Part shown: positions 166-63,000 of the stretch, piece after piece
How positions within the stretch are numbered: the first letter of the stretch is position 1
How the letters are laid out: every line of letters starts with the position of its first letter
Origin: an uncultured virus (IMG/VR IMGVR_UViG_3300014205_000203)
Taxonomy: Duplodnaviria > Heunggongvirae > Uroviricota > Caudoviricetes
IMG/VR virus record: IMGVR_UViG_3300014205_000203
Strand: one strand, 5' to 3'
Length of the DNA stretch: 64,000 nucleotides
Notes under the pieces: model-generated
The model's database searches: none
What the model saw: only the letters and a program-made list of their open reading frames with translations
Told to the model about the DNA's origin: nothing
Program-made: the position numbers and the translations under genes

Positions 166-1851
166 ATGATTGACAATTTTGCTGCATATAAGGACAAGAA
201 AATACCACGTTCATGGGAACTAACGGTTGAGCCTATGTACTTGGTTGTTGATTTGTTTTGTGGTGCTGGTGGTGTTACTACCGGATTTGCAGAAGCGCAG
301 TTGAATGGCAATCCATTCGTTAAGGTTATTGCATGTATCAACCATGACCACAAAGCAATCAAAAGCCATTGGGCTAATCATCCAGAAGTAATACACTTTG
401 AAGAAGATATACGCACACTCGAATTGAGTGGCTTATGTGATACTGTTGAGTACTGGCGAAGGATGTACCCGAATGCGTTAGTAATACTTTGGGGTAGTTT
501 GGAATGTACCAATTACAGCAAAGCTAAAGGAGGACAGGAGAAAGATGCAGACAGCAGAACATTGATGTATGCACTATACAAACATTGGACTGGCGAAGGC
601 TATGGTAAATCATCTTACGTTGAGGGTAAGTCATACATTCAATACATTAATCCAGACTACATAATGATTGAGAATGTAGAGGAATTTAAGACAAAGAATG
701 AGGACTTTGACGAATGGTGTAATGAGATAAACACGTTCGGTTATCGCAATGAATGGACAATGTTAAACAGCGCAAACTTCGGTGCATATACCAGCAGAGA
801 TAGGCTCTTTGGTTGCTTCGCTAAAGATGGTTTGCCTATCGTATTCCCACAACCAACACACGCAAAGAAGGTAGGAGTAAGCAAGAAGAACATGCTATTT
901 GCTGAATCATTACAACAATGGAAAGCTGTGAAGGAAGTATTAGATTTCACAGATGAAGGCAAGAGTATATTCAACCGTAAGAAGCCATTGGTAGAAGCTA
1001 CGCTGGCTCGTATCTATGCTGGGTTGATTAAGTATGTGGCTAATGGCGATACATCGTTTATTGCGAAGTATTACAGCGGCAGACCTAAAGGAAAAGTAAC
1101 CAGCACAGAGAATCCATTAGGAGCCATTACAACCGCTGGTAATCAGTCATTGATACAGTCTGTACGTTTCATAGATAATCAATACGGCAGAGGATATGCC
1201 AGCAGCATAGAAGACCCATTGAGTACACAAACAACTAAACCACGCCACAGCATTGTAGAAGTACAGAAATATGCTGCTACTCAAATACAAGATATTAATT
1301 CCCCTACTGGCGCTTTAATGACTACCGATAAGAATAGCCTTATTACTACTGTTCCTTTCATAATGGATACACAATTCAATAACACAGTTAGAAGCGTGGA
1401 AGATCCTATGGGAGTTATAACAGCTAATCGTAAATATCATTACTTAGTTAACCCATCATTCCCTAAAAATCCAAACAGAGGATTGCACAGCACAGACCAA
1501 CCGGCACCAGTTATTGTAGCCAGCCAAAATAAAGCACCGCTGCGTATGATTACCGTTGAGCATGGCTTAGTGCAAATACCTATCTATGATACAGACAGCG
1601 ATACAATGATTAAGATTAAAGAGTTCATGGTTATCTATGGTCTGGTTGATATTAAAATGAGAATGTTGAGGGTGCAAGAGTTAAAGATAATACAAGGCTT
1701 TCCTGCTGATTATATACTGGATGGTACACAGGAAGACCAGAAGAAATTTATCGGCAATAGCGTGGTGCCACAGGTCGTTAAATCATGGATAGAAGCAATG
1801 GCACAGGCAACCACGCCAGTAATAATAATGGAATACAAAAAAGCAGCATAA
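166..1851 (+). CDS. C5-cytosine DNA methyltransferase
   Basis: Motif I DLFCGAGG, catalytic SLECTNYS, motif VI ENVEEF, motif VIII SRDRLF, C-terminal QGFP and IGNSV. The centre has about five S-x-x-x-P-x-x-x-x-T-like repeats. ATG 166 preferred over GTG 97. Confidence 0.92.
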   Translation: MIDNFAAYKDKKIPRSWELTVEPMYLVVDLFCGAGGVTTGFAEAQLNGNPFVKVIACINHDHKAIKSHWANHPEVIHFEEDIRTLELSGLCDTVEYWRRMYPNALVILWGSLECTNYSKAKGGQEKDADSRTLMYALYKHWTGEGYGKSSYVEGKSYIQYINPDYIMIENVEEFKTKNEDFDEWCNEINTFGYRNEWTMLNSANFGAYTSRDRLFGCFAKDGLPIVFPQPTHAKKVGVSKKNMLFAESLQQWKAVKEVLDFTDEGKSIFNRKKPLVEATLARIYAGLIKYVANGDTSFIAKYYSGRPKGKVTSTENPLGAITTAGNQSLIQSVRFIDNQYGRGYASSIEDPLSTQTTKPRHSIVEVQKYAATQIQDINSPTGALMTTDKNSLITTVPFIMDTQFNNTVRSVEDPMGVITANRKYHYLVNPSFPKNPNRGLHSTDQPAPVIVASQNKAPLRMITVEHGLVQIPIYDTDSDTMIKIKEFMVIYGLVDIKMRMLRVQELKIIQGFPADYILDGTQEDQKKFIGNSVVPQVVKSWIEAMAQATTPVIIMEYKKAA

Positions 1852-1878
1852 TTAACCACTAACATAAACCATAACATC

Positions 1879-2352
1879 ATGTCAGCTACATCAACCAAAA
1901 CCTACAAATCATTTGCAAAGAATTTCAGGATTATTTGCGAGCCAGATGCACCAGCATTTAACAAAGTAAAAGTTTCCAGTTCAAGGGAGATTGATTTCTT
2001 TCTACGCAACCTTTGGAACATTGGACAGGATATTGAAATTGTTGAATCGTTCTATATCCTTCTTCTTAATCAGGGTAACAATATTACAGGATGGGTTAAG
2101 CTATCGTCTGGTGGTTTAACTGGTACAGTTGCAGACCCAGTACTGGTTGCTAAGTATGCAATAGAGCAGTTAGCTAAAAAGGTTGTAATAGCCCATAATC
2201 ACCCATCTGGAAACCTCCAACCATCAAGAGCCGATGAAGAAATGACAAGGCGCATAAAGGAAGGATTAAAGCTATTCGATATTCAGTTACTCGACCATAT
2301 CATTTTAACAGACGAAAGCTATTACTCATTCTCTGATGAAGGCATAATATAA
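1879..2352 (+). CDS. radC: RadC-like JAB/MPN domain protein
   Basis: ESFYILLL, AHNHPSGNLQPSRAD, LLDHIIL and YYSF motifs. Confidence 0.92.
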   Translation: MSATSTKTYKSFAKNFRIICEPDAPAFNKVKVSSSREIDFFLRNLWNIGQDIEIVESFYILLLNQGNNITGWVKLSSGGLTGTVADPVLVAKYAIEQLAKKVVIAHNHPSGNLQPSRADEEMTRRIKEGLKLFDIQLLDHIILTDESYYSFSDEGII

Positions 2353-2382
2353 TTCACCACTAATAAAATAAACTATAAAGCA

Positions 2383-2814
2383 ATGAACGCACAAAACACA
2401 CGCAGCAATCAAATAACCTTCCTTACAGCCTTTAGCACTCTATGGGTTGATGTAACAGCCATTGAAGCGCAGGATGGCAAAAATGGGCTGGAAACAACAG
2501 AAGGAAGCGACCAGCTAACCATAATGTTAAACTCATTCTGTAATGTAACGGGGTTACCTCAAATGAGTGCAGATGATCTTCTATTGAAATTACAGGATGA
2601 AGAAGTAAAAGCAGAAGCAAAATTATTCTTCTGGAAAGATAAATCAGGTAGGGGACAAAGTGGGCCTGTTACATTAGCTGGCATCCTTAATACTGCCGAT
2701 GATGATGAAGTAAACTATGATGATATTAAATTGGCTGAATGGGCAGAGAGCGCAGAACAAGGCGAAGAATGGGAGAATAGCACCGACCACTATGTTTGCA
2801 CCGAGGTTAACTGA
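2383..2814 (+). CDS. Hypothetical acidic protein; stop codon lies in the hammerhead 1 core
   Basis: 143 aa ORF with an A-rich leader. It ends GTT AAC TGA. Confidence 0.75.
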   Translation: MNAQNTRSNQITFLTAFSTLWVDVTAIEAQDGKNGLETTEGSDQLTIMLNSFCNVTGLPQMSADDLLLKLQDEEVKAEAKLFFWKDKSGRGQSGPVTLAGILNTADDDEVNYDDIKLAEWAESAEQGEEWENSTDHYVCTEVN

Positions 2815-2861
2815 CGAGGTTTTAATAACCGAAACCGGACACCTGGTGTCCGGTCTTAACC
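2805..2861 (+). ncRNA. Hammerhead ribozyme, type I (HHR1)
   Basis: GGTTAA-CTGACGA-[GGTT ttaat AACC]-GAAA-[CCGGACAC ctg GTGTCCGG]-TC-TTAACC. Full core with perfectly paired stems I-III. Predicted cut after GUC at C2855. Confidence 0.95.
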
Positions 2862-2878
2862 AAATAAAAAGATCATTT

Positions 2879-3154
2879 ATGAAAAATTTAATCGCTTTTA
2901 TCATCATCGGATTGCTAATCCTGTCCTTCCCTGCCAATGCTCAACCAAAGGTTGTGGAAGATGCTAACGGTAACTATAAAGCCGTTAAGAGTACAACAGC
3001 ACCAGCGCCGGAGCCAGCAACCAAAACAAAGAAAACCTTTACAGACACAAAAGGTATTGTTTACCCTGTCATGGTATCAAAGAACGGTAAGGAGTTCTAT
3101 GAAAGAGTAAGCAAAAAGGGTAATAAATACCGTGTGTACATCAAGGTTAACTGA
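2879..3154 (+). CDS. Small predicted secreted protein; stop codon lies in the hammerhead 2 core
   Basis: MKNLIAFIIIGLLILSFPANA-Q is a Sec-type signal peptide. ATG 2879 follows an A-rich leader (track start 2717 rejected). Confidence 0.75.
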   Translation: MKNLIAFIIIGLLILSFPANAQPKVVEDANGNYKAVKSTTAPAPEPATKTKKTFTDTKGIVYPVMVSKNGKEFYERVSKKGNKYRVYIKVN

Positions 3155-3199
3155 TGATGGCTTTAATAGCCGAAACAGGCTGTAAAGCCTGTCTTAACC
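3145..3199 (+). ncRNA. Hammerhead ribozyme, type I (HHR2)
   Basis: GGTTAA-CTGATGA-t-[GGCT ttaat AGCC]-GAAA-[CAGGCT gtaa AGCCTG]-TC-TTAACC. One extra U follows the CUGAUGA box. Predicted cut after C3193. Confidence 0.92.
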
Positions 3200-3216
3200 A
3201 AATAAAAAACTACATC

Positions 3217-3558
3217 ATGTACACACTCAAAAACAAAGTTCAACTTATTGGAAATTTAGGCAATGCGCCAGAAATCAAACAAACAGAAAACGGCACTATG
3301 GCTCGTTTCTCAGTTGCTATCAATGAAACATTCCACAATGCAAAAGGGGAAAAAGTAAAAGAAACAACATGGCATAGTTGTGTTGCATGGGGTAAAGTAG
3401 CTAAGATAGTAGAGAAGTATTTAAACAAAGCTGGTGCTGTGGCTATTGAAGGCAAATTGATTAATAGAAGTTACACCGATAAGGAGGGTAACAAAAAATA
3501 CATTACAGAAATAGAGGTAGGAGAAATTCTTCTTCTTGGAATGACACAGGTTAGCTGA
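3217..3558 (+). CDS. ssb: Single-stranded DNA-binding protein (short form, no acidic tail); stop codon lies in the hammerhead 3 core
   Basis: NKVQLIGNLG, ARFSVA, TTWHSCVAWGK and EGKLINRSYTDKEGNKKYITEI motifs. Confidence 0.93.
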   Translation: MYTLKNKVQLIGNLGNAPEIKQTENGTMARFSVAINETFHNAKGEKVKETTWHSCVAWGKVAKIVEKYLNKAGAVAIEGKLINRSYTDKEGNKKYITEIEVGEILLLGMTQVS

Positions 3559-3602
3559 CGAGGATTTATTATCCGAAACTGCCAGCAATGGCAGTCTTAA
3601 CC
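3549..3602 (+). ncRNA. Hammerhead ribozyme, type I (HHR3)
   Basis: GGTTAG-CTGACGA-[GGAT ttatt ATCC]-GAAA-[CTGCCA gcaa TGGCAG]-TC-TTAACC. Stem I has a G-U wobble and stem III has a GNRA loop. Predicted cut after C3596. Confidence 0.95.
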
Positions 3603-3620
3603 AAAAACCAATTACACATC

Positions 3621-4091
3621 ATGGAAACAAGCGAAATTACTGACAGTAAAAATATCTTTGACGATGTTCTGACAGTTATACAAAAAACAAATGACGGTGC
3701 AAATTTATCACCAAAAGATTTACACCTTACCGAATGTGCTATTAATGGCTTTCTTACAGAAGAAGGGATAGCAGAGTTTTACAGCGTGTATCATAGGGTT
3801 ATAGATGGCACCTATGATAAGCTAAAAAATTACCTGTTCGGAGTTGAACACATTACTAAAGACCATGAATGTTATGTGTATTACAAAGGGAAGCACATAG
3901 ATCATTTTACTTTCAATGGAGATTATAAAGGAGAAAGACAAGCAGCCATTAAAGCGGCTAAAATATGCTCACTATTGGAAAGTAAGAATATTGAAGTATC
4001 ACCGCTTACATATTGTTGGAAGGTGGAAGATTACCTGACAGCAGAAGAACTTGCAACCATTGAAGAACCAATGGGAGCATACGCAGATTAG
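3621..4091 (+). CDS. Hypothetical protein
   Basis: ATG 3621 follows the leader ttaaccaaaaaccaattacacatc. The ORF is flanked by HHR3 and HHR4. Confidence 0.75.
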   Translation: METSEITDSKNIFDDVLTVIQKTNDGANLSPKDLHLTECAINGFLTEEGIAEFYSVYHRVIDGTYDKLKNYLFGVEHITKDHECYVYYKGKHIDHFTFNGDYKGERQAAIKAAKICSLLESKNIEVSPLTYCWKVEDYLTAEELATIEEPMGAYAD

Positions 4092-4101
4092 CCCAGTCAG
4101 A

Positions 4102-4206
4102 GGTTAACTGATGAAGGCTAATTGCCCGAAAATCGGTAAGCAGTAACAAAAGCTGTGTGCATCATGTACCAATGGTTTGTTATAGAAGTCTTACCGATTA
4201 TTAACC
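4102..4206 (+). ncRNA. Hammerhead ribozyme, type I variant with extended stem III (HHR4)
   Basis: GGTTAA-CTGATGA-[aGGC taatt GCCc]-GAAA-[ATCGGTAAG...49 nt...CTTACCGAT]-TA-TTAACC. The cleavage triplet is UUA, with the predicted cut after A4200. The base of stem II is an A-C mismatch. Confidence 0.8.
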
Positions 4207-4223
4207 AAAAAAATTGAAATACT

Positions 4224-4868
4224 ATGTACACACCCAATCCAGAAATCGCCAAAATAATTTATCCTCTTAGCTATGTAAACGGCTGTATAGTTGATAAAAT
4301 TGGTCAGGTAATAATGAAAATGAACAGGGAACACGATAGCACCCCTTTAACCCCATCTTACAGAGATGATCTTGCAAAAGAAATTGTCGAACTGTACAAC
4401 AAAGCACATAGCCCGTCCTTCTTATTGTTAAGCTGGTGTACAGAAGATGTAATTGATAGGGCAAATGATATTGAATATGAGCATGAGATAACAGAAGAAC
4501 AGGCTATTGAAATTCTGGCTATGCTTGATGATGCACACGATGCCAATGTTGGCATTAACTGGGAGATAATAGATATAGTTACCCAGCAGTATTTTGATGA
4601 AAAGGAAAAGGAGAAAGAATTAAGCGACTTATCAAAGTTTGAGTTTCGGGATGGCAATTTCTACCCTTATGTAGAAGTTATGCTGCATGGCAATCTTGAA
4701 ACCATATCTACTGAAAGCCTTAGTAAAGTATTGATGAATGATGATGGCACAGAGCCAGTTAGCGAAGAAGCTGAACGCATGGACAATGCTATTTATTTCT
4801 ATGTACCAGATGAAATGATAACAAAGCCATTATCGGAACTTAAAAAATACATATTAGAACACGAATAA
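4224..4868 (+). CDS. Hypothetical acidic protein
   Basis: 214 aa ORF starting 23 nt after the HHR4 cut site. Confidence 0.75.
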   Translation: MYTPNPEIAKIIYPLSYVNGCIVDKIGQVIMKMNREHDSTPLTPSYRDDLAKEIVELYNKAHSPSFLLLSWCTEDVIDRANDIEYEHEITEEQAIEILAMLDDAHDANVGINWEIIDIVTQQYFDEKEKEKELSDLSKFEFRDGNFYPYVEVMLHGNLETISTESLSKVLMNDDGTEPVSEEAERMDNAIYFYVPDEMITKPLSELKKYILEHE

Positions 4869-4901
4869 CAAACCTTTATTAATAAACCAAAATCAATTAC
4901 C

Positions 4902-5219
4902 ATGTTACTAAATGACAAAACAAACCAGAACAAAATTAAAAGGGCGCAAGCCATTTTAAGGGCAGTCAGCCACAATTTAAGGCGTTCAATATTGGACACA
5001 ATAGAATTGAACGACAACAAAATTACTGTTACCGAAATCTACGTAAAATTAAGACTGGAGCAATCCGTTGCCAGCCAGCACTTAGCCATCTTACGTAAGG
5101 CAGGAATAGTAAAAACAGAAAGGAGTGGTAAGCTAATTTATTATTCTGTTAACAGCTTAGTAATTGAAGATGTACTTCAATGTTGTGTTGACCTTGAAAA
5201 AGCTACTACCAAAAGTTAA
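4902..5219 (+). CDS. ArsR/SmtB-family winged-helix regulator
   Basis: ILRAVSHNLRRSIL, TVTEIYVKLRLEQSVASQHLAILRKAGIVKTERSGKLIYYS. Confidence 0.9.
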   Translation: MLLNDKTNQNKIKRAQAILRAVSHNLRRSILDTIELNDNKITVTEIYVKLRLEQSVASQHLAILRKAGIVKTERSGKLIYYSVNSLVIEDVLQCCVDLEKATTKS

Positions 5220-5222
5220 CCA

Positions 5223-5272
5223 AAACTAAATGCTGACGGGCAGCCGGAATGTTCGAGCCATTCTTTATGTTT
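5223..5272 (+). ncRNA. Putative structured intergenic RNA with a tRNA T-arm-like hairpin
   Basis: Hairpin GCTG-acggg-CAGC is followed by GAATG-TTCGAGC-CATTC (5-bp stem, 7-nt TTCGA loop). A weak outer AU helix is possible. Confidence 0.4.
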
Positions 5273-5288
5273 CTAAATTTTAAACATC

Positions 5289-5555: not shown

Positions 5556-5813
5556 ATGGTAACAAAAATAACCTTAACAGGCGCAGCCATATCTTCTCCA
5601 CTCATTCAACAGAGTGGAAAGGTAGAACGTGCCACGTTCAGCATAGCAGTAACAGTGAAAGAAGAAACCGCACACTTTCCCGTTATATGCGAAGGCGAAC
5701 ACCTGGTATCAAGGGTAAGGAATGGAGTAACCGTAGGAACAAGGGTAAGCGTGGAAGTTACAGGAACATACGACCAGTTAATAGTCAGTTCAATGCTAAT
5801 AATGGCACAATGA
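5556..5813 (+). CDS. Divergent SSB/PriB-like OB-fold protein
   Basis: KITLTG, ATFSIAV, HFPVICEG and VGTRVSVE parallel the SSB strand pattern. Confidence 0.55.
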   Translation: MVTKITLTGAAISSPLIQQSGKVERATFSIAVTVKEETAHFPVICEGEHLVSRVRNGVTVGTRVSVEVTGTYDQLIVSSMLIMAQ

Positions 5814-6964: not shown

Positions 6965-7660
6965 ATGCAGGAACTTATAACAGTTACGATAATGTACCGC
7001 AATAATTATGATGGCGGTGATGGGTGGACTTACTACCCAATGAGAATACGAATAGGCAGTAAATGCCCTGTTTGTAATGGGCTACGTGGTAAACCATACG
7101 AGTATAGGTTTTGTGATGATGGCGAATGGTTTACAGTTGATAAATGGGATAACCCGTGTGGGCACCTTGACAAGTATGGAGATGTTTATAAAGAATCAAA
7201 AAAAATTACAGAAATGATCTACAACGAATTTAAGCCGCTAAATTTCCCCGATGGGGTTAAATCAGTACTAACAGCCGAACGCTATCAAGGAACGCCGGTT
7301 ATTGTCTATACCAATGGCATAGAGCAGCATGTTTACAACATGGAAGGTGAACGGCTGGCGCTGCTATCCAGTTTCAAAGGAATAGACTTTTTAAAGCTGT
7401 CTTCCTCGGGTAAATGGTTTGCTTATGCCGGTGTGTATTTGAAGACAAGGAATTTGGGTAAAATCGTTCTGAATGAGGCTGTAAAGTTTGTTATAACCGA
7501 TGTGCTGGTGTACGATGGCGAATGTGTCATTAATATGCCTGGGGAAATAAGGGTACAAACATACCTATCAAAAATGCAGTACCATCCTGCAGCCGGGAAA
7601 GCGGAGATTTACAATTTTGTATCAGGCACCCCGATAAGTGGTGTATTTATAAACGCATAA
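6965..7660 (+). CDS. Zn-ribbon-like domain fused to a degenerate ATP-dependent ligase-like domain
   Basis: N-terminal CPVC...CGH. The C-terminal half has AERYQG (cf. KxDG) and ITDVLVYDG (cf. ligase motif IIIa). Confidence 0.45.
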   Translation: MQELITVTIMYRNNYDGGDGWTYYPMRIRIGSKCPVCNGLRGKPYEYRFCDDGEWFTVDKWDNPCGHLDKYGDVYKESKKITEMIYNEFKPLNFPDGVKSVLTAERYQGTPVIVYTNGIEQHVYNMEGERLALLSSFKGIDFLKLSSSGKWFAYAGVYLKTRNLGKIVLNEAVKFVITDVLVYDGECVINMPGEIRVQTYLSKMQYHPAAGKAEIYNFVSGTPISGVFINA

Positions 7661-8349: not shown

Positions 8350-8670
8350 ATGCATCCAATTATATTAGACGGCAAAAAATATTATTACCATTTTCAAAAG
8401 CTATCCAGAAATAGCACTGACCCTATATTTGGAGAGTTTAGGATTAATTTTTATAGGAAAGTCATAGTTCCTAAATGGAAGTTCTGGTTTATAAAATCAT
8501 CAACGAAAATTGAAAACACTATTGATATGGGTTATGTTGATGGAACTTTTGAAATAGTAGGCGACTTCGATTCCATGTCAGAAATGAAGAAGCAACGAGA
8601 AATTGTAAGACCGTCATTAATAGGTTTTATTACTGAACACAACAAGCGAACAAACTCACTCACCAAATAA
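8350..8670 (+). CDS. Hypothetical protein
   Basis: 106 aa ORF in the operon. Confidence 0.6.
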   Translation: MHPIILDGKKYYYHFQKLSRNSTDPIFGEFRINFYRKVIVPKWKFWFIKSSTKIENTIDMGYVDGTFEIVGDFDSMSEMKKQREIVRPSLIGFITEHNKRTNSLTK

Positions 8671-12168: not shown

Positions 12169-12615
12169 TTACGCAGCCATTACATCACTGCCGGCCGTCA
12201 GCTTGCGGTTAAAATAATCTGCCTGGGCTGCAGTATCGTAAACAAATTGTTTGTACCGGTTGCCATCTATTACTACAGTTAAGGCAGTTTTTAAAGCCAG
12301 CATGTATTTGTTGCGCTCTTTTTCATCCATTAGGTTAAGCGCACCTAACATACAATTTGCTTTGTCGATCGGGTCCTTAAATTTTTTACAGTTAACCACT
12401 TTATTGGTAGCGGCCAGCGAGTCAATGATAACATTAACTACTTTTTCTTTGTCCTTACCTGGTATCACGTCATAGATTAACTGGAAGCTGGGATCTCCAA
12501 TTATTTTGGCAACTTCGGTAGTTACAGTGTGAGCAACGTCCAATGCTTTAGTTAAGGCATTATCCAGTATAGATAACCCTTTTTTTACTGTCTTATTGAA
12601 ATTTTTACAAGCCAT
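12169..12615 (-). CDS. Hypothetical protein in the lysis cluster
   Basis: 148 aa ORF between the holin-like genes and the endolysin. Confidence 0.7.
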   Translation of the reverse strand: MACKNFNKTVKKGLSILDNALTKALDVAHTVTTEVAKIIGDPSFQLIYDVIPGKDKEKVVNVIIDSLAATNKVVNCKKFKDPIDKANCMLGALNLMDEKERNKYMLALKTALTVVIDGNRYKQFVYDTAAQADYFNRKLTAGSDVMAA

Positions 12616-12995: not shown

Positions 12996-13273
12996 GGCTT
13001 CTTTTTTCTGGTTAATTTTCTTTTAAGATACGGGTATATGGCTTTATGGTCCCCGGCCTTAATTCTTTTTTTTACATACAAAAGAAATTCCTTCCCGGCT
13101 ACACCTGCAGCACCATAAACGAAAGCGATAAACACCCCCTTCAATATAATGAATACACTTAGGATTTCATTTGCATGAATAGCATAATCCAATAAGCCAC
13201 CCAAAATACCACATACGAATCCTACCGCTGTGTTAACGCCATTTGTTCCGTCGAGTTGTATCACCTTGTTCAA
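12992..13273 (-). CDS. Putative holin/antiholin-like membrane protein
   Basis: Two TM segments and a basic C-terminus. The TTG start is uncertain. Confidence 0.5.
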   Translation of the reverse strand: MNKVIQLDGTNGVNTAVGFVCGILGGLLDYAIHANEILSVFIILKGVFIAFVYGAAGVAGKEFLLYVKKRIKAGDHKAIYPYLKRKLTRKKKP

Positions 13274-36700: not shown

Positions 36701-36828
36701 TTGTAAATAGATTGCAACCCAGCATCCAAATTTTTGGCAACACGGGAGTACGCAATAAACTCAACAAGATCGTTAAGGTCGTTGCGTAGTGTGGTATTCT
36801 TTACTAAACAAGAAATATCAAGCATCAC
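33712..36828 (-). CDS. Large helical protein, putative injected (cargo) virion protein
   Basis: 1038 aa, follows the giant polyvalent genes. C-terminal HhH-like ILPGIGPKT. Confidence 0.55.
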   Translation of the reverse strand: MMLDISCLVKNTTLRNDLNDLVEFIAYSRVAKNLDAGLQSIYNDIRMSGIEVDLQTIGFIYNDVLPKSYAQFDSDHDVNEYALKSYNDAINRAARLEAPEQLERQIGQNSPDLEVVNGILNMFTKLNTEISDPIYSDMRMMQEALWKGIQRKLNLTNSAVPKDQKDWEELLTQALGYENLGMTDINGRLNGIDDLFNSMKDQLDTATQEMEAKGDYATAQKWREMTGKLKASAYSLLFSKQEAKTFITSIMKEAGYGKELKDGKTVIDWKKLSNETGSVLDIYNNIDRVMRDKGYSDSVIDGVQDSFVNELNDLNAKIVEWRLKQMENKSEALNRASNKKTDLKRLAELNNLGIFQSAHDKLLSSVVGISDLQAQDLADLEELAKAASNLYREIDKNYGNDVFASSALQTIQRHIDRIVQRNINNKSVLMRIISAIKNFMDILLTGMLMGPLTIMENWLSGIKETMTPILSGKAKFTNTEDREVYRSVLADVIVRGQAYGEEVGSFAPRELYSNSLRWKWKGGTLKDKAESVLYGLMAPARLGLLGFDSANKAVITNKTFHNAMYQALLQHGKTEEEAANILNEALHGKKFEDAKTDASDILNNINTQLSAKYAIPVNNSTITRLANDLVKANLNTDGLFTDRAKAIEIVVSTLKGSYHVAGYGLGHEPNNPLSKMIKDARDRMVKGEEKLRSAKKWDRLAWHKLGSTFMNGMILRFTGGATNWVVLRAQSGLGLGIASGFLGGNANADIDFKNTDTIKQSIRERLGARNQIGRGMAGLSYTLMGYVVYYLLTKGGDDDRERKKKRLEELSKYVQTPEVKLEIKQLTSEASIMQQIKSSYMGNRLFKKVSPDLMLLQYYVQTDKNAWMGATNYVIKTSGIASDFSTASKFNDAMNYYRNNEIDPGNGALASIAGDRTAVPLWRAYKDWYKLGNWIVGNNVSSDFKKPTNISEGIFGGGALEDWGVYQRNSSITILPGIGPKTIERYKTLGIENMGDLEKNPGWENMMYINEKGQPEFILDSDDRKAAKAAAEKWIKEN

Positions 36829-39800
36829 TTACATTTATCAATGAAATTTTTAATTTTGTCAACTATGCTGCTCATGCCTCCCTTCTTCGCAATTTCATCT
36901 GCTTTTGCAGCTGCAGTTTTTTGCGCTTCAACCGGCGACATAGTTTTTTTATTCTGTTTCTTCTTTATGTTGTCAGCTTTTTTTTCTGCCGCCTCTGCCT
37001 CTGCCGCATCCTTCTCCTGCTGACTGATTTTACGAAATTCTTCAATTCCCGCTTGAACACGACTTTCAATATCGGCCTGTTCAGCTTGTAATTTACGTAA
37101 TAAGTTTTGGTCTTTAATTTCACGTTCTTCAAGTATTTGGTTAGCAAATAGATCACCCATATATTTATCACGATACAACCGTAACAATGCACCGGCAGAA
37201 ACCTCTTTACCTCTTTTATTCATGTACTCCTGATAATACTGTGTAACTGCATTATCCAATCCACGCAGTTCATCTACCCTTTCTGGATTACGGTTTATTT
37301 CTTCCCGAATTTCTCCCAGGAAGGTTGCCATCAGCACTGCTTTTTTAGCCAACAGTTCTTCATCACCACTCATGCCTTTAATATAATTGAAAAGAGGCTG
37401 GCCGTAATCGGATAGATCGCTGCCCCATTTTCCCATTGCGGCACCAATCATATTTTTACCATCCTGCAACATATCAACACGGCGCTGGGTGAGGTAGCTT
37501 TGATCTCCTTCTGGAGCATAACCCAAAGCGGAAGTAATTGTATTACCGGAAAGCATATCCTTCACTTCGCCAGAGGTTGACATTTGATAATCACCGATCG
37601 GGTCCCGGCTTTCCCATTCTTCATAATCTTGTTGGTTGTCCTCCTGTTCTTCTTCCTTCTGGCGCTCTCTTAAAATATCAGCAACAGCACGGGTAGAAAA
37701 TTCTTCAAAGGTTAAATTTTGAAGTTCTGCAGAAGTAATATTGTCAAAGCCTAAAGCATTTTTGATAGCATTCCATAAAGATTTTAACCATGCAGTAATG
37801 CCTTCTTTTCTTGCTTCTGTTACAAACTGGGCTCCTTTATCTCCAATAGCCATAGCAAGAGCCTCATGCTGATAAAACCTTTCTCTTTCATCCTCTGCAA
37901 GTTTTGCAGCCTGTTGTTGATAGAAAGGATTTGATTTTACTTTGTCCAGGTACGAACTGCCAGAAACAAGTTCAATACCACGGTTATAAATTTCTGGTCT
38001 GTTTTGTTGTGCCCAATTAGTCCAGATATGCCCAGCTTCATGGATGGGGGTATTAGGATTAAGATGTTTACCGTTAAGATAAATTTTACCGGCATGAGTA
38101 AATCCTAAAATTTTACCTTCTGGTGAATACTGAAAGAAAACATCATCCAACTTGTATTTTTTAATTATATCCTTAGCTTCCTGCATTTCTGAATCTCTAA
38201 AAAATTCTTGTAACACAGGGGTTCCTTCCGATATATAAATACCTATCATCCTTTCAATAAACTTGTGTGCATCATATTCAAGACTACCTTTTCTATCATA
38301 CTCTATGCTATCGTATTCTTCCTGTGTAGCATAATCCTTTTGGTCAAATTCCACTTTACTGGAATACTGTGCAGCATGGGCTAATTCTGTTACGAAATCA
38401 TCAAAGCTGGCAATGTTACCTAATTGAATATTTCCTTTAAAAATATCGGCTGTCGCATAAGGCCGCTTTCTGTTAGCCAAATCATATTTCGTCCTTAAAA
38501 TATCAGGCTTACCGAAACGCTCCCATAATTTTAAAGCCCGTTCTATAACTTCCTTTGGCGCAACTTCATCATTAACAGCATAAGATTGTTGCAACAACTC
38601 AACAACAGTATTTTTAGTAGAAATATCAACTTTAGGGTTTGATGTTGAAAGAGTAATTGTAGTTAACGCAGCAGCTACAAAGTTCCTTACATAATTCTGG
38701 TATTCCACATTGCCCAGTTCTGCGGCTTTATCTTTTAAAGCCTCTGTGTTTGGTAATATCTCAACCCCATTGCCATTAATAGCATTAAGGTTACTTTCAA
38801 TTCTATCAATCACACTCATTACCATAGCAAAAGGTGTATCTTCTCCCCGGCCATATTCGTGGTATGCTTCTTCTACCAGTTTACGCATTTGTGGTGAATC
38901 ATCTTCCAGTTCCGTAGCTACAAGGTTTTGAATATCCACCAGACGATTATTACCCAGGTCTATTTGCTCTTTAACAACTTCCTGCATTTCCTGTATTTCA
39001 TCGGGAGTAGGGCCGGTAACAGAAAATTCAGGTTCCATTTCTGCATCATCCTCATTTGGCCGTCCTTCCTCTTTGTAGGTGAAGAAGCGGAAACCATCTT
39101 GCTTTGCAAGGTTAACCATGTGCCCTAAATTGCCGGAAGTTTTTAAACCCAGTGCATTTGATAAGTCCTGATCATTTGCTATTCTTAGCACCTGACCATC
39201 TGAACGGATAACATATAAATTTTCCAGTTCAAATTCATTAGGAAATTCTTCACGTTCGCCCAGGGCTTCAAGTTCTTCAGCAGAAGGAACACTTTTTTGT
39301 TTTGACATTTCATCAAGCAAAGTGGCTAACCTCAATTGATTTGCAACAGCATCTTCCAGTTCTTTTTGTTTAGGAAATTCGGCTGGTAATGATTCAAGAT
39401 ACTGGCTCTTGTCCTTAATATCTTTTTCATAAGATTTAAGCCACCCCTTTTTTCGGTCAATATCTGGTTGCTGGTTCCTTATTTCACGTTGGAAGTACCC
39501 AGCCAGACTAACAGCATCAACAGAAAAAGACGGGTCGTATGGAACATTAGAAATAGGGCTCTTAACTGTGAAGTATGGCACTAATTGAACTCCCTTTTCT
39601 CCTTCATCCCCCCTCATTTTTATAACAACATCAAAGCCAGCAATATTTCCTATCACTTTTGAATCGCTCTTTACCTCTTTCCAATCTTTCTTTTTTAATT
39701 TAAGAGTTTCAGGATAACGCTGTACAAAATCCCTGATATAATCTTTCCGAACCTGCAGCAGTTTATCTCCGGCTTTTTTACGCTCTGTAAATTCTTCGCC

Positions 39801-42800
39801 GCCAATTGTAATTTTATATTTCCATTCGCCGGTTTTTTCATCCTTTTCAGAATTTTTCTCAAACAGATCTTTATCCTTTTGTAATTCTGAAATTTGTGCT
39901 TCACTATCAGCCATATTCTTTTTGCTCCATGCTATCTTATCTTTCAAGCTGTACTTTTCCTGTTCAAATGCTTTTTTAGAAGCATCCAGGTCTTTTACTT
40001 TTTTATCAATCTTCGCCTTCTCCAACAAGATAGGGTTACCGGAAAGCATGGCCGTCATAGCTGCAAACGAAACACCGTTTTCTTCATCACCGTCGCCCTC
40101 TGATATTTCACGGGCAGCACCTTCACCAGTTTTAGCCTGATTGATGAATTTTTGTTTTGCATCAAGCAACTGGTATTTATAAGCATCCAGAGTTGCTTCG
40201 GTGGCATAATAATAAATAGGTATTTTATTATTGTAGTGATTTTTAATGATAAAGTTACCCTGACGAATATACCTGCCATTCCTTTGCTCCATATCCGATG
40301 GCCTCCACGGTACATCAAGATGATGCCCAGCTACTACTTTATTTTGCACGTTAACACCAGTTCCCAATTTTGAAGTGCTACCAATGATCACCCGTATTTT
40401 ACCGGCACGGGCATCTTCAAACATCTGCGCTCTGGAAATATCACTTTTGTAATCATGGATAAAGACAATTTCCTCACTGGGGATGCCACGTTTGATTAAC
40501 TTATTTTTAAGTTCTTCGTAAATGTTAAAAGTTTCTTCATTTGCTTCATTAACCGCTTCCTCAAACTCTGCTTCTGTGTATTCCAGTTCGGATAATATTT
40601 TGTCCCTTATTTTTTCAAGGGTAGGAAATGTTTGTCTGTCAGAATATGCACCGGCACCAAAAATATTTTCCATTATTTCCCGATCGACACCACGGCTTTC
40701 AAGCAAATCAAAAAGGTTTGCTCTGGTGCTGGCAGCTTTAGGAGTGCCCAGGTCGCTAAATACTAACTGGATGCCTTTAAGGGCATTTGATTCATTATAA
40801 TGCCGGGTAATGTAGTCAGCAGCCACACCTAACTTACCTACTTCAGTACTTGCATAAGATGGGTTTATCAACTTCATATCAATAGCCATCTTAGCAGCTA
40901 AACCAGTTGCCAAAAGCATGTACGACTTTTTCATGTTGTCGTTCATCTTTACGCCGATGTAAGAACCATCTTTTGTTTCTGCAAATTTTTGAATTTTCTT
41001 TGCATACTTTCTTTGCTCTAAAGTAGGAGCAATATTTACCAGCAAACCATCTGACTTTTCACCTTCGGTATAATTTATTTTTTCATCACCATGTACAATT
41101 TGACCGGCATTTGGTACTACCCAATCATCATTACCATCTGACATAAGGCTAATCCAAAATTCATTTTTTTCAATTCCTTTTATGCGGCCAATAACTTGAA
41201 ACTTATTACCCTCAATAGTTACATTTTGGTTAGCCAGAATTTCTTTATCAGTTTTAACACGGAAGGTTTGTTTTGGAACGGGTTTATCCAGTTTTAAATT
41301 GCTGTCATTCCGAACGTCTGAAATCTCCCTGTACATGGCGCTCATTTCAGGCACGTTCATAAATTCACGCATCCTTACTTTTGGCTTCAATGAATTTGTA
41401 ACACCAAACTCAATTTCAGAACCAACCCGAGCAAAAGTATTTGCCCACTGATCGAAGGAGTCAATACCCATTTCTTTCAGCTTATTTGGCCGCAGGTATT
41501 TAAACAGCGAATACATTTCAACCATAGTATTGCTGATGGGAGTACCGGAGGCAAACACAGTTCCTTTATCTGCACCGTACATCTTCTGCAGGGACCGGAT
41601 GGCAAACAGCATATTAAATGCTTTGGCTGAACCTTTGGGGCTACCCAAACCAGATATACCACGCTGTATGGTATTGTATGCAAGGTTTTTGAACTGCTGG
41701 CTTTCATCAACAAACATAAAATCAATACCCATTTCCTCAAAGGTTTTCAGGTAAGGATCTTTGGGCATTAAGCGTAGTTTATTCAACCTATCTTCTAAGT
41801 TCTGCTTCCTTTGTTCCAAACCATTCAATTCACGTTTTGACAGGTCATGATCTTTTGCTATTCTGATATCATTATCAAGAGCCTCAATTTCTGCGCTGAT
41901 AATTTCGTCCTGAATTTCCCGTGATTGCTCAATTTTCCCAAACTGGTCATGTGTCATTACAATAAGATCCCAGTTATTGTTTGCCATTTTTGCAAAGAAG
42001 GCACGGCGATTCTGTGGGGTAAAATCTTTTTCCTTTGGAGAAAGAACCTTACCCATTGGAAAGGAGTTTTTATATTCTCTGGCTAAGTCAGCAGTATTGG
42101 CTTTTAAACCAATAACAATAGGCTTTTTAAACAATCCCATCTCTTTACCCTTGTTGGCTGCCAATGCCATTAAAAGCGTTTTTCCCGAACCTACAATGTG
42201 ATCGATGATACCACCCATCTGTTGTAATATCATCCAAACTCCATCAAGCTGGTGGCTTTTTGGTGTATGCTGACCGGCGTATCCTGGGAAAGAAAGATTG
42301 CTACCATCATATTTTCTGGTAACAACATTATTATAATTTTGATTGTAGTATTCAACCAGATCATTTCTTCTATCATCATCTTGCCATATCCAGTTATCCC
42401 ACGCCTGTTTTATTTTATTAACCTTATCGTTAGCCTCTTTGGTAGCCTGATCATTTACAACGGTAACCTGTGGTGGACCTTTGAATGTATCTTTTACAAT
42501 GGGCATCCGGTTTTGTATCGCTTCTGCCAACAATTCAAAGCCATCCATCCTTGTAGTTCCGTACACATCTGTTATTTCGGTATTGTAGCTGCTATTGCCT
42601 GAAACACTTACACGTCCGGTAGATAGTTTGGTAACATAAACATTCTGTTTGAATATTTGGGATGCAAACTCATTCAGATATTTTGTTGAAATCCACGGCG
42701 CAGAAATAGGAGCATATATTTGAGATGCGTTTAAGTCCTGTGGTTGTGCAGCTTCAAGAGCAACAACATTTTCTTCAAAAAATTTATCCTCTGTGGCTGC

Positions 42801-45800
42801 AGTTTTTGCTTCTCTTAATTTCTTACGTACATCACCAGACAGGTATTTATCTTTGGTTTCAAAATCTCCGGTAATAGGATTTTTATATATCAACCCTTTC
42901 CCAATTTCAATAACTTCCTCGGGTGCTTTACTAAGGAGCCCGGATATTCTATCTAAATCAACACGGCCAGTTTCATTCAGGTTAATGGCTATGGCTTCAT
43001 GAATATCTTTTGCTGATTCTGGTCTGGTAACTTTCTGGAAAACACGCTTTGTAAAAATATCTGCAAGGCTTACTACTTTTTTATCTACCACATTTTCCAA
43101 AGCCAGCATATTGTAACCATCAATATCAATATCAACAAGTGGCTTATTGGATAATAGAGTACCATTGTTTTTTACAAAAGTTTTATATGCTTTATTAAGG
43201 TCTGACCTTTTCCCTTCAATAAAATCAGTTCCCATATCTCCATACTCCGCAGCATACAATTCATTTAAGGCTTTGCGAAGGGGAAGAAGGTCGGTAACAG
43301 CCTTGATATATTTTTTTGCAATTTTTACTGGCTGTACTTTCTTAATTTGGAAATCATCGTAAGTAAGTCCTGTTTGTTGTTTAAGCCATTCATATTCATC
43401 TGGCAGTAGATCATATTCCCTTATCTTATCAGGATTAACACCAACGGAACGGGCTTTTGCATCCAGTTCTTCATTAATGGCAAGTTCATCTGAATAAATA
43501 CCATATTCTCCCGGCGATACTTCAACAATATTACCTGGGCGCTGGCCGTTGTTCTGAACAAACTGCTCAATCTCCTGCTTTACCTCATTGTCTTTTTCTT
43601 GTTGTTCAGTTTCGGCTATTTTAGTTTTAAATATTTTCCCAGCAAGGGCGCTGATACCTTCTTCAAGATTTATACCTGTTGGCAATACTGTTATATCATC
43701 CGAATTTTCAGAACTTCCATACATAGAGAAGGCAACCACTTCACCCAGTACCATATCAGGGTTATCATGGAAATACTCATTGTAGGCAACATTAAACATC
43801 TGGTCCTTATCCTTATGTTTAAGCTGTGCTGTTTTAATTTCTGTGAAAGGATGATCTTGTTTTTTTTCTTCGCCTTCTGCAAACTTGCGTAGGAAGATGA
43901 TATCAGTTGTTACCTGTGTATTTGCATTTCCACGGAAAGAATCATTTGGCAAACGGATGGCCCCTAAAAACTGGGAACGGTCAGCCATCATTTCCCGTAG
44001 GTTGGCATTAATATTTGAATCTAATATGCCGGTACTGGTAACAAAGGCAATTAAACCATTGGGTTTAACGTCCTGCAAAGCACGGGCAAAGAAATAAGAG
44101 TGGATGCGGTTTTGAGATTCTTTTAATACAGGATCTTTCCCCTTTTCAAAATTAATATCGGTAACTTTTACTTTACCGAAAGGAATATTTGAAATAACAA
44201 GGTCAACACTACCTGGGGGAATTGCTACGTCCTGATACCCGGTTATTTTGGAACTGATATTTGGATAAAGCCCTTTTAAAATCTGTCCGGTAATGTTTTC
44301 AACTTCAATAGCAGTAATCTTTGAATTGTCTGCTATATCCCGTGGCATGGCACCAATGAAATGCCCAGTACCGGCACTGGTTTCTAAAATATTACCTCCT
44401 TTAAAACCAGCTTCCTTTAAAATATTGTAGATACCACGGATGATAGGAATAGCGGTATAGTGTGCGTTTTGTGTTGATCTGGTTACAGCATCCAGATTGG
44501 CTTTATAGTTTTCTTCATCAAGTTCTCTTATAACATCATGTGCTTCCTTAATTTTTGAACGAAGTGAAATATTAGATGCCTTCCAACTCATATTGCTGGA
44601 TGGATTAAAGCCTATTTCTTTAATGCCACCCCAGCCAACATATTTGAACAAGGTTTTTTGTTCTTCATACGTAGCCCTTCTTTTTTCTTTTGAAAGACTA
44701 ACCAAAACTCGTAAAGCATCTATATTATCTTGTAGCTTTTGCGCTACATTAAAACTCTTGGTATTTACAAAATCAAGAGGAATAACAAAATTTTGATTGT
44801 GCTGCAGTTCTGAAATAACAGGTTTTTGTTCAGCAGGTTCAGGCGTAGGTTGTTCCATAGATTGGCCTCCCAGTTCTCTATTAAGTTCTTCGTTACCATT
44901 TAAAGGGACATCAGCGTTTCCATCACTGTTTCCTGTGCCTGGTTCGCCGGTGTTCCGTTCCCCACTAAAGTTTCCTGCATCGTTACTGCTGCCTGTACCT
45001 TCTTCACCAGCCACAAGTCCAGCGTTTGGTTGTCCTTCATTTCTTTGTACATCTCCGGGTGTTCCGTTTCCAACCACTCCTTCAGGTCGTTCGTCCACGG
45101 GTGCGCTAATAGCATTTGTTGATTGTCGTCCATTTTTAATATCATTTAAAATGTTATCAAAAGTTACTCCACGTAAATTGGGGTCCATATTATTGGCTTC
45201 ATCTTCGGTAGCTTTTGTGTTATAGTAATATCCATATACGCCGGATAATTCTTCAAAGAAATCTTTAACCTTATCACCCCATCGATCGTGAAGATCTTCT
45301 ACAATATCAGAAAATTTATAAACCCCGGCTTTCATGTAAAGACCAATAAGTTTAACCCCTTTTTCAATTTTAACAGGGTCAATACCTCCACTGGTTAAAA
45401 GATTGCCACCTTTGGTAAAATCATCAAAGGCACTATCAATATCTTTTTTTAATTGTTCATCCCGGATAATTCTTTTTTCTTCTTTGGTGGTAACAGGAGT
45501 ATTGTTTTCATCAACCAGTTTGCCATCTGAAAAATGAAGCTGCTTTATATTTCCTTTTTCATCATGTAGTTCATACTTGCCGTCAGATATAGATGCAAAT
45601 GTTACAATGCCGGAATATTCGCCAATAAATATTTTTTTACCTGTAAGGGCTTTAAATTCTTTATCTGGATTAGGTTTTGACATTTCAGAAATAGAAGGTG
45701 TTATGTATTTTTTTGCCTCATTTCTTAATATCTCGGCCATTTCTTTAGCGGTAATATTATCATGCTTCCATTGATTTGCACCTTTATATTTAGCCTGACC

Positions 45801-60091: not shown

Positions 60092-63000
60092 ATGCCAGAT
60101 GCAAAGTTAATCCCCGTAAAATGCAACCTCGACCTGGGCCCCGAATACATAGACGAACATACCGCCAGATTTATGAAAGGATTAACCCCGTTTGTTGGAA
60201 CGGTAGATAGTGCTGGCAATGTTCTGGAAGGGGAAAATGAGATAAAATTAAAGCCCAATCAGTCAAATGAATTGTACGTTAATATTCCTGTACCGGCTGG
60301 AGATAATTTTTTGGTTGGAGCCCGTGGTTTTCCTGAAAGTAATGAGATTTATTGCGCTGTTTACAACAGTAATAATGATCATTTTTGGTATCGCCTCAAT
60401 TGCTTAACCAGAACCTTCGATATTATAAAAATAGATAGCTGCTTTAACTTCCAGAAAGATCCCCGCTATTTTATGGGTATCGGGCAAATAACCCTTACGC
60501 TTATTCCTCTTGTCAATCCAGATACAAAAGAAGAATTTATTGCCAAAGAATTGAAATGGACCGACAATAAAAATCCGCAGGGGTTCATACGAGTTCAAGA
60601 CTGCATAGATACCAATGGGTTTGATGCAACTGCGTTTCCATACTTTGCCGGCACTTATGATAAATGCCCTTTAGTCAGGATGGGTGTACCTACTCCAAAA
60701 CAATGCATTAAGGTTACAGAGATACCTTCAGAGCCGGGATTTTCAAGCAATATTGAAATTGGGTTTTCTGGTGGCATAACCACAAACGAAGTGTGTGCAG
60801 CTGTAACTTTTGCCGGGATAACGGGAACCTTCCTTGTAACATTCTATGCTGCCACCAATACAATGAAGTTCCAAACCAACACGAATGGTAATGAATTTAC
60901 TACAATTGGTAGTACAATTACTATAAACGGGACCGTTGCTAATAATGGCATTAGAAATATTATGGTAGTGGCTATTTCCTCAAGCCTTGTAAATGATCAG
61001 AAAAACAACCGTCTGCTATACCAAAAATGGTATTTTATGCAGCAAAATGTTGATGTGTGGGGACGACCTTCTGAATGGGGTATAAGATCAGCCGAATACA
61101 TACCAGGTATCAATGATTGTATTGCTAACAGCAATAACATTGTTCGCTGTCTTAATCTTGAACTGGATGCAGGAAATCCAATTATTGATAGCATAAATAT
61201 TGGATTTATTTCGTGTGCAAATGGTATTTCTACTGTTTGGAAGAAAGAAGCAACATTATTTTTATACAAGGGAAGTAACATTGGGGAATGGTGGAAACGT
61301 CCACGAAACCCGGATATTGCCTACAATCAGGTAACCAATACAATTACTTATAAATTCTGCCGGGATAAAGAGTGCGAAATTATCCCTGTTGATGAAACGA
61401 CCAGAATAGAAAACCCGTTACCTAAAAGATCAGCGGCCATCATGGATTTAAACCATGAAACCTCACTATTCAATAATAAAAGCAAGTTTTCTCCTTTCTC
61501 CCAGGCGCTAAAGGAAAAAATAACACATACTGTAATTCCTCCGACTGAAGCAGACCTCGGGTTACGTAACATAACTATCTACGTGGCTATTTACAACGAA
61601 TTTTACCAAGCCCCAACAGATTATCAAGGTAAGTTTGTTGGAGTGGCACCAGATGGGAATAACGGATTTTACTTTGGGGGAATTACCAGCAATGGTCAGT
61701 ATAGCGGTGCATGGGCTGAAAGATATCAGCAGCGATTTAAAAATAAGGCTCAATCCGGTTTTGATGGTTATTTGGTAGGTGGTGGCAATGTAATAAGCAC
61801 TCAGGTAATAGAACAGCCAAACGGAACTTTATTAGACGACCCGAAACATACATTAATGTTTAACCAAAGTGGTTTACCACTTCAAAAATTTGTATTTACC
61901 AATGTGCCTGTACCACCAACTGGTAAATATATTTTCAGGCTGGCTTCTCAACTTTCAGATTCAAATGTGGATGCAAATTACAGGCAAACAAGTACAACAG
62001 TTTGGGGAACTTGCGACTATACAAGGGTGAATGGAAGGTTAAATATTGATTCTAAAACAAGAGGTAAGTATCATTCGCAGGAAATCTTAATTGATGTATG
62101 CAATGGCGACTATGATACATTTAAAGATGGCGGTAATAAGATTCTTGTGGTTGCAGATATGGCTGCAGTTGTACAAGGTGGAGAATACAAAGCTGTAAGC
62201 CGGTATGTGTATGAAACCAACATGAATGGTTATAATCAATCACCAGTTGAGTTGCTTAATGTGATTGCGGCCAATATGACCACTTCCCAAATAACAGATC
62301 ACAACGGATATATGTGGGTAACAACCAGAGGCCGGGGAAGAACCTATGCGCTTGATCAGGTTTATACTTGTGTGTGGAACCAATTAAGATACGGACAGTC
62401 TAATACGGCAGGAATGGTTATTGACCAGCCGATATTTACGCAAGGGGTTTTAGAAAAACCATGTAACAGAGTATTGATAAGAGGTAAGATATTATTGCAA
62501 GGAACAAACATTGGTATTTCAAATGCTTTAGTAACTATTACCCGTGGTGCAAGTGCTGTAACTGATGAAAATGGGGAATTTGAAATAATCGCACACGATG
62601 ATGTTTACGAGTTTTTAGGAGGTAGAGTAAGAAAAGATAAATTGATAATTACTTCTGTCTGTGCTTATGATAAACTCTGTCTGGATATACCAGTTCAATG
62701 GCCCCCTTGTTCAAATTGTAATGAAAGGATTGTTACTATTGCTGAAACTGTTTTTTTAACCTATACCAATAAAAAAGGATTGCTAAGTGGTGGCGTTTAT
62801 CCGCTGGGCTGTGTTGGCTTTGATTGGTTAGGCCGTGCAACATTTGTTCAGCCGTTGGGAATGATTACCATTCCTACCATTACTGAAACAAAAAACATTG
62901 CTCCATCTACGGTTCAAATAAATATTGACCCTGCAGCAACATTCCCGGCAGATATAGAATACATCACCTTCTGGATAGGGCCGGAAACCACTTTACAAAA

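Follow-up and report, generated by a model that had tools for sequence, protein, structure and literature searches.

A cluster of four type I hammerhead ribozymes occupies four consecutive gene junctions, one ribozyme per junction, in the early operon, one of DNA-metabolism genes, of an uncultured phage (IMG/VR record IMGVR_UViG_3300014205_000203). The cluster lies at positions 2805-4206 on the plus strand of the 64,000-nt stretch of DNA that we analysed, which we call the window. At each junction the predicted cleavage site is followed at a nearly constant, short distance by the start codon of the next gene, and the stop codon of the preceding gene lies inside the ribozyme or just in front of it. 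Comparison with related hammerheads in phage metagenomes suggests that this geometry is selected. With a probability of roughly 0.6, we read it as ribozyme punctuation of a phage operon, in which each gene would be given a leader without a Shine–Dalgarno (SD) sequence and would be uncoupled from its neighbours.

Four hammerhead ribozymes at consecutive gene junctions

Within window positions 1500-5000, the succession of GGUUAA, CUGAYGA, a short hairpin, GAAA, a second hairpin, U-H and UUAACC could be read in each of the four copies, HH1 to HH4, which have the following elements.

2805-2861, plus strand: HH1, type I hammerhead; stem I GGTTAA (2805-2810) with TTAACC (2856-2861); core CTGACGA (2811-2817) and GAAA (2831-2834); GTC, cut after C2855; stem II GGUU/AACC; stem III CCGGACA/UGUCCGG
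3145-3199, plus strand: HH2, type I hammerhead; cut after C3193; extra U between A9 and G10.1
3549-3602, plus strand: HH3, type I hammerhead; cut after C3596; one G.U pair in stem I (GGUUAG/UUAACC)
4102-4206, plus strand: HH4, variant hammerhead; cut after A4200; H17 is A; A.C at 10.1/11.1; stem II GGC/GCC; stem III of 9 bp; 49-nt insertion in loop III

In all four copies, helix I is open and contains both the 5' and the 3' end of the RNA, and three helices surround the junction, which is the topology of type I hammerheads. The hammerhead core consensus consists of C3 U4 G5 A6 N7 G8 A9 and G12 A13 A14; it is complete in HH1-HH4, and in each of them the A15.1-U16.1 pair is followed by an H17 other than G. 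The G10.1-C11.1 pair is present in HH1-HH3 (in HH2 behind the extra U), while HH4 has A.C at this place. The cut-site triplet is GUC in HH1-HH3 and UUA in HH4, and stem I is the same in HH1, HH2 and HH4, with HH3 deviating by its single G.U pair. The minimum free energy structure of the isolated HH1, HH3 and HH4 RNAs is the three-way hammerhead fold. The pattern composed of stem I and the core was matched three times in the window, against 0.00 matches expected. As judged from the sequence, the motifs fit the definition of a hammerhead, and their self-cleavage is predicted.

Leaders, start codons and embedded stop codons in the window

The segments that would be left in front of each gene after cleavage, and the stop codons of the preceding genes, are listed below.

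2856-2878, plus strand: HH1 leader, UUAACCAAAUAAAAAGAUCAUUU, 23 nt, followed by ATG 2879
3194-3216, plus strand: HH2 leader, UUAACCAAAUAAAAAACUACAUC, 23 nt, followed by ATG 3217 of the SSB gene
3597-3620, plus strand: HH3 leader, UUAACCAAAAACCAAUUACACAUC, 24 nt, followed by ATG 3621
4201-4223, plus strand: HH4 leader, UUAACCAAAAAAAUUGAAAUACU, 23 nt, followed by ATG 4224
2812-2814, plus strand: UGA of the HH1 core, stop codon of open reading frame (ORF) 2383-2814
3152-3154, plus strand: UGA of the HH2 core, stop codon of ORF 2879-3154
3556-3558, plus strand: UGA of the HH3 core, stop codon of the SSB gene, ORF 3217-3558
4089-4091, plus strand: TAG, stop codon of the ORF upstream of HH4, 10 nt 5' of stem I

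The first-pass annotation of the window had reported the same four cut-to-ATG distances and had described the leaders as near-identical, rich in A and free of SD sequences. The distances and the composition agree with our reading: the leaders contain 1, 0, 0 and 1 G, respectively, and none of them contains GGAG, GAGG or AGGA. Only in length and over the first 9 nt are they near-identical, all four leaders being opened by UUAACCAAA; HH1 and HH2 share the first 15 nt, and the remainder is similarly A-rich yet different. Adenine is found at -3 in three of the four leaders, at -6 in one, and at both -12 and -13 in three.

Two of the four start codons are supported by features of the proteins that they open. 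The product of the gene starting at ATG 2879 (91 aa) has a signal-peptide-like N-terminus (MKNLIAFIIIGLLILSFPANA), and its alignment with phrog_16207 begins at residue 5. The Pfam domain of the SSB protein begins at residue 6 if ATG 3217 is taken as the start, and at residue 27 if the long ORF is read from ATG 3154, and 18 of the 21 SSB relatives examined begin 1-4 codons ahead of the aligned block. The alternative in-frame start codons, ATG 3154 and ATG 3588, are located inside ribozymes, 5' of the cuts, and would thus be cut away. The remaining two starts, ATG 3621 (product of 156 aa, no family) and ATG 4224 (214 aa, phrog_10258), were assigned by the spacing rule of the family described below and not by homologues. 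At the other side of the junctions, the UGA of the CUGA core serves as the stop codon of the upstream ORF in three of the four ribozymes (HH1-HH3), a feature not mentioned in the first-pass annotation. With the upstream stops embedded in the ribozyme or adjacent to it, ribozyme and leader together occupy the entire intergenic gap.

A family of covarying hammerheads in phage metagenomes

A scan of IMG/VR with a pattern in which stem I and the core were fixed found at least 128 stretches with a match, and the family counts given here refer to the matches listed. Among the stretches listed there were 152 pattern matches, in 139 of which stem III comprised 4 bp or more, position 16.1 was U and H17 was not G; 131 of these were unique. 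The cut dinucleotide in the 152 matches was UC in 120, UA in 29, UU in 1 and another one in 2. An alignment, A1, was composed of 105 rows, namely 102 of the 127 unique passing sequences (up to 60 nt) and three copies from the window. The sequences in it had been filtered for stem III (at least 4 bp) but not for stem II, and its core columns are invariant partly because the pattern fixed them.

The hammerhead structure paired 99.1% of the cells in A1, as compared with 24-40% in slid controls. Cells with double changes numbered 288, against 71 +/- 6 in shuffled alignments, and none of the 500 shuffles reached as high a value; stems II and III covary, with double changes in seven pairs. The pair 10.1/11.1 is GC in 103 of the 105 copies, and the GG of stem I, which the pattern did not force, is present in 104 of the 105. 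Loop II has three nearly invariant positions (U.A.U), and stem I is flanked by a conserved A before GG and by an A at +7 in 99% of the copies. Loop II and the flanking adenines may form a tertiary contact that fixes the sequence of stem I.

A covariance model made from A1, which we call R1, gave scores of 66.4, 68.8 and 64.3 bits for HH1, HH2 and HH3, respectively, and only 20.9 bits for HH4, which was misaligned owing to its long insertion. Two further R1 matches in the window, at 12333-12397 (minus strand) and 62557-62609 (plus strand), were discarded; the former is devoid of the core and lies within coding sequence. In 77 loci (714 kb), R1 detected 121 copies, 22 of them outside the strict pattern; among these were covariant forms of stem I such as GAUUAA/UUAAUC, GCUUAA/UUAAGC, GGUCUA/UAGAUC, GCAUGA/UCAUGC and others.

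Cut-to-start spacing and embedded stops across the family

In 113 of the 131 unique hammerheads listed, the first ATG lies 18-26 nt behind the cut, whereas shuffling of the downstream 120 nt placed it there in 12.3% of cases. With the range widened to 16-28 nt, the number was 116, and 113 of these ATG codons open an ORF that has at least 30 codons or runs off the locus. Ribozyme-free junctions on the same strand of the same loci have no such preference, as a gap of 18-26 nt was found in only 44 of 788, with crude ORF calls. The spacing is more uniform within contigs than between them: the mean within-contig difference was 2.03 nt, versus 6.81 nt after permutation (0 of 5000 permutations), and without two outlier loci it was still 1.85 versus 2.43 nt (39 of 5000). 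As the same spacing recurs in more than 100 unrelated phage sequences, it looks selected, and the 131 unique examples listed support, at the level of sequence, the view that the cut-to-AUG distance is under selection. Thus, the regularity that the first-pass annotation had noticed at four junctions is real, and is stronger than could be seen there.

Stem I variants follow a similar rule. In 9 of 12 the ATG is 20-27 nt from the cut, and in the remaining three, all from one locus (L190), it is at 44 nt. This locus carries seven ribozymes on the minus strand (e.g., 5686-5737, 7359-7410 and 8510-8563), all with leaders of 40-45 nt. Between UUAAYC and AUG, the L190 leaders share an insert of about 21 nt (AAAAGUCAGGUGCAGACUAUAACAGGCAC-like), a second conserved RNA element.

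Stop codons of the upstream genes were tallied for the 123 listed copies that are preceded by an ORF of at least 40 codons. In 79 of them the stop is one of three codons that lie in stem I or the core or overlap them (the first three lines below).

TAA inside stem I: 36/123
UGA of the core: 25/123
TAG overlapping stem I: 18/123
Stop codon 3-9 nt before stem I: 31/123
Stop codon deeper in the ribozyme: 6/123
Stop codon further upstream: 7/123

Leaders fit the initiation signature of Bacteroidia

In the family as a whole, the spacer between stem I and the start codon consists of 58% A, 25% U, 13% C and 4% G, and its sequence is not conserved past +8. An SD-like 4-mer is present in 12 of 113 leaders. 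The frequency of A relative to the ATG is 72% at -3, 58% at -6, 91% at -12 and 73% at -13. According to Baez 2019 (PMC6847099), adenines at exactly these positions (-3, -6, -12 and -13) are positive determinants of initiation in Flavobacterium johnsoniae, in which the initiation region is described as poor in structure from -20 to +20. The family leaders have this signature, as they combine the adenines and the lack of SD sequences with a predicted probability of being unpaired of 0.71-0.77 in the spacer. The proposal of the first-pass annotation that these are A-rich initiation leaders of the Bacteroidota type is supported. Positions -12 and -13 of the shortest leaders (18-19 nt) are taken by the two conserved adenines directly behind stem I, which would explain the sharp lower bound of the spacing.

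Leaders of the same kind without a ribozyme

One leader in the window begins in the same way but is not preceded by a ribozyme, as the first-pass annotation had pointed out; R1 has no match upstream of it.

1852-1878, plus strand: radC leader without a ribozyme, UUAACCACUAAC...ACAUC, directly after the stop codon of a methyltransferase gene and followed by the radC ATG at 1879

Together with the start codon, this region reads TTAACCACTAACATAAACCATAACATC-ATG (1852-1881). TTAACC (TTCACC at 2353) opens ribozyme-free leaders 12-28 nt before start codons at 1852-1858, 2353-2363, 5216-5222 and 13009-13015 (minus strand) of the window, as well as in loci L130, L177 and others, and some phages repeat a nearly identical ribozyme-free leader at many genes. 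These leaders may act in initiation or as sites of processing, or may be what is left of ribozymes that were lost. Their origin by simple deletion between the two TTAA repeats was rejected, as they are preceded by TA or TAA and not by GG.

Proposed function of the ribozymes and alternatives to it

We propose that the ribozymes would fold during the transcription of the polycistronic RNA, each cutting behind GUC (UUA in HH4). The upstream piece would retain its stop codon inside or just before the ribozyme, and would carry a 2',3'-cyclic phosphate at the end of its folded ribozyme. Stem I, a weak helix of 6 bp with a duplex energy of only -4.1 kcal/mol, would then dissociate, and the downstream gene would be left on a separate RNA that begins with a 5'-OH and has a leader of 23-24 nt, poor in G, rich in A and without an SD sequence. 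This leader would supply the upstream adenines used by Bacteroidia ribosomes. As a net effect, the translation and the decay of each cistron would be uncoupled from those of its neighbours. The fixed spacing would arise because the initiation region, which extends to about -13, must begin right behind stem I in tightly packed phage genomes. The sequences directly show the motif and its covariation, the spacing rule and the stops embedded in the ribozymes, and from these we infer that cleavage occurs in vivo and acts on translation and stability.

Several observations weigh against this proposal. None of the Rfam 15 models for hammerheads matched at the gathering threshold, and none matched at E <= 10 when 12 kb, 1.5 kb or 76 nt of the window were searched; an Rfam scan of 14 ribozyme-rich loci returned a tRNA only. 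As the core, the helices and the covariation are present, we read this silence as a gap in the models and set it aside as an argument against the hammerhead identity; a subfamily of hammerheads that is frequent in phage metagenomes is overlooked by Rfam-based annotation. The sample is limited by the sampling pattern, which fixed stem I, and the starts in the loci are first ATG codons rather than curated gene calls. In view of A.C at 10.1/11.1 and of the 49 nt inserted in loop III, the activity of HH4 is doubtful. For 113 junctions, partition-function folding predicts that cleavage changes the initiation region little: the probability of being unpaired rises from 0.71 to 0.77 in the spacer and from 0.58 to 0.65 in the AUG region, in contrast to a rise from 0.53 to 0.90 in the stem I strand. 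Finally, TTAACC was found 18-28 nt before ribozyme-free starts in 55 cases, one of them the radC leader of the window, in 36 of 72 loci, as compared with 14.8 +/- 6.1 cases for permuted hexamers (89 hexamers, maximum 35). Thus, the standard leader exists independently of cleavage, and its use does not require a defined 5' end. The first-pass annotation had suggested that cleavage frees the leader from stem I and standardises the translation and stability of each gene. This is partly supported: since the predicted shift in accessibility is largely confined to the stem I strand, cleavage would free these six bases, but not the initiation region.

The nearly equal accessibility of the cut and the uncut initiation region, and the use of the same leader at ribozyme-free junctions, are what would be expected if the ribozymes cut for a purpose unrelated to initiation and the spacing followed simply from tight genome packing, with an unstructured initiation region, 12 nt or longer, bordering directly on a folded element. 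Such a purpose could be the timed decay of early transcripts, or the ribozymes could supply 5'-OH and cyclic-phosphate ends that serve or thwart RNA repair and nucleases of the host. The sharp lower bound of the spacing at stem I plus 12 nt, with -12/-13 directly behind stem I, agrees with packing as well, and the purpose of genomic hammerheads, open since 2011, is still called undefined in the Weinberg review of 2019 (PMC6765202). However, packing would not account for the lack of a preference for 18-26 nt at the ribozyme-free junctions of the same loci (44/788), nor for the uniformity that is specific to each phage, nor for the 40-45-nt leaders at all seven ribozymes of L190. We regard packing as the sole cause as possible, though we lean against it. 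At the opposite end stands the idea that cleavage is required for efficient initiation, the ribosome loading from the fresh 5'-OH end 18-26 nt before the AUG and the A-12/-13 determinant following immediately on the cut strand; the hammerhead and its UUAACC leader would form a natural portable junction part in phages of SD-less Bacteroidota. This would make the module, with its leader length fixed per phage, a bacterial counterpart of the cleavage-dependent translation described in 2026 for eukaryotic RNA viruses, but we consider it unlikely.

The ribozyme and its leader might also be a portable cassette that spreads between phages or marks the boundaries of gene exchange, with cleavage being possibly secondary. 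With stops in two of three frames and a ready-made leader it could fit between any genes, and stops are indeed embedded in stem I or the core in 79 of 123 copies. Contigs without a gene in common with the window have the same stem I and loop II: when 18 window proteins were compared by tblastn with 80 loci (L129-L208), only RadC matched (L178, 41% identity), and this RadC homologue, in contrast to that of the window, does carry a ribozyme. In the 23 loci with SSB relatives no ribozyme was found, which leaves no orthologous junctions to be compared. These two results indicate that the ribozyme is not bound to particular genes, and most of the downstream genes (88 of 102 unique ones) are small orphans without a PHROG family, the median length of the 102 being 75 aa. 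Against a mobile cassette, the copies diverge from each other in stems II and III with covariation, and do so within a single phage as well, which indicates that the copies are old and that their folding is selected; moreover, the spacer beyond +8 is not conserved, and no transposition or recombination machinery is linked to the module. We hold the cassette to be quite improbable. The near-invariance of stem I (the same in HH1, HH2 and HH4, one G.U pair in HH3, GG in 104/105) could alternatively mean that the 5' UUAACC of a released RNA pairs with the GGUUAA of the ribozyme at its 3' end, so that the hammerhead is rebuilt and the ends are ligated by the ribozyme or by RtcB into a circular single-gene RNA. 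This possibility was raised by Perreault 2011 (PMC3088659), where it is also reported that circular or spliced products were sought in the systems of that study and none were detected. A tertiary contact with the conserved loop II (U.A.U) would explain the invariance equally well, and so would the leader motif found without ribozymes. The formation of circles appears highly improbable.

Comparison with known hammerhead systems

Clustered phage hammerheads are already known; what is new here is the fixed geometry. Perreault 2011 (PMC3088659) describes clusters of hammerheads in prophages, with examples from Agrobacterium, Azorhizobium and Clostridium, which cleave in vitro and for which processing into single-gene mRNAs was proposed; both the clusters and the processing idea are also covered by the 2019 review (PMC6765202). 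The window cluster resembles them in class and topology and in that several copies flank single genes of varying identity. It differs from the account given there in the fixed cut-to-start spacing, the stops in stem I or the core, the shared UUAACC leader and the link to SD-less initiation in Bacteroidia. The same source reports HHphage of the haloarchaeal viruses HF1 and HF2, which precedes the start codon of the first early gene by 13 nt, with a mapped 5' end within 3 nt of the cut site. Unlike the window module, HHphage is a single copy at the head of a transcript in an archaeal host, is not repeated between genes, and has a variant core that needs high salt. In a 2026 study (PMC13725137), a type I hammerhead upstream of an ORF is described whose self-cleavage is needed for translation initiation; that system is eukaryotic and concerns cap-independent translation on RNA genomes, and matches in DNA bacteriophages are explicitly set aside in it. 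In the literature searched, which did not extend to the alignment in Dataset S1 of Perreault 2011, we found nothing on the fixed geometry, the embedded stops, the link to Bacteroidia initiation or the blindness of Rfam to this subfamily.

The first-pass annotation had likened the leaders to natural insulator parts. In insulators of the RiboJ type, a hammerhead is placed just upstream of the ribosome-binding region, and its cleavage strips the upstream context and leaves a defined 5'-OH leader. RiboJ was engineered from a type III hammerhead of a satellite RNA, and a hairpin added at its 3' side exposes the SD site. The phage module, in contrast, has neither this hairpin nor an SD site, and it overlaps the upstream stop codon. 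It offers natural, tuned insulator parts for hosts that ignore SD sites. The question of what genomic hammerheads do becomes, in this case, a measurable rule: a stop inside the ribozyme, a start 18-26 nt behind the cut and a leader with the Bacteroidia signature.

The phage, its host and the distribution of the module

Among the products encoded in the window are a terminase, a tailspike, an endolysin, SSB, RadC and methyltransferases. With the terminase, 82 phage records were matched (identity about 25%), 81 of them named Flavobacterium, Cellulophaga or Maribacter phages and one a Caudoviricetes record. The window is from a tailed phage, probably of a Bacteroidota host. A blastn search of window positions 2780-4240 against named phages gave no match. 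An 81-nt query produced weak matches only, two of which are hammerheads with another stem I and without a gene start nearby. These two hammerhead-like motifs are in Pelagibacter phage HTVC019P (KC465901.1, L210:2501-2553; 34.4 bits with R1) and in crAss-like phage cr11_1 (MT774383.1, L209:4001-4051; 27.9 bits with R1). Both lie in unannotated intergenic DNA with no long ORF starting nearby, a context unlike that of the junction module.

In bacterial genomes (596 Gb), the pattern was matched 102 times; 94 of these matches failed the structure test and were discarded as chance matches. Four of the eight that passed are in Bacteroidota bins (L212, L226, L232 and L252), and the other four are in three bins, labelled beta-proteobacterium, Aliivibrio and Streptomycetaceae. 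Judged by these counts, the module is mainly a feature of free phage genomes.

Many of the ribozyme clusters in IMG/VR lie within a few kb of a contig end (e.g., 211-1062 of 73.5 kb, 74372-75224 of 75.4 kb and 77-82 kb of 82.7 kb), which would fit an early-entering end of the genome. Downstream of the window cluster, the ArsR/MarR-like gene (4902-5219) is followed by an unusually long gap of 69 nt (5220-5288), which starts with TTAACCAAAAC and contains the G+C-rich stretch CTGACGGGCAGCCGGAATGTTCGAGCC. The structural module of the window includes two giant ORFs on the minus strand, 36825-46562 (3245 aa) and 46720-53718 (2332 aa), which were left out of the PHROG scan; their products are reminiscent of the huge virion proteins found in crAss-like phages and in their relatives among the phages of Bacteroidota.

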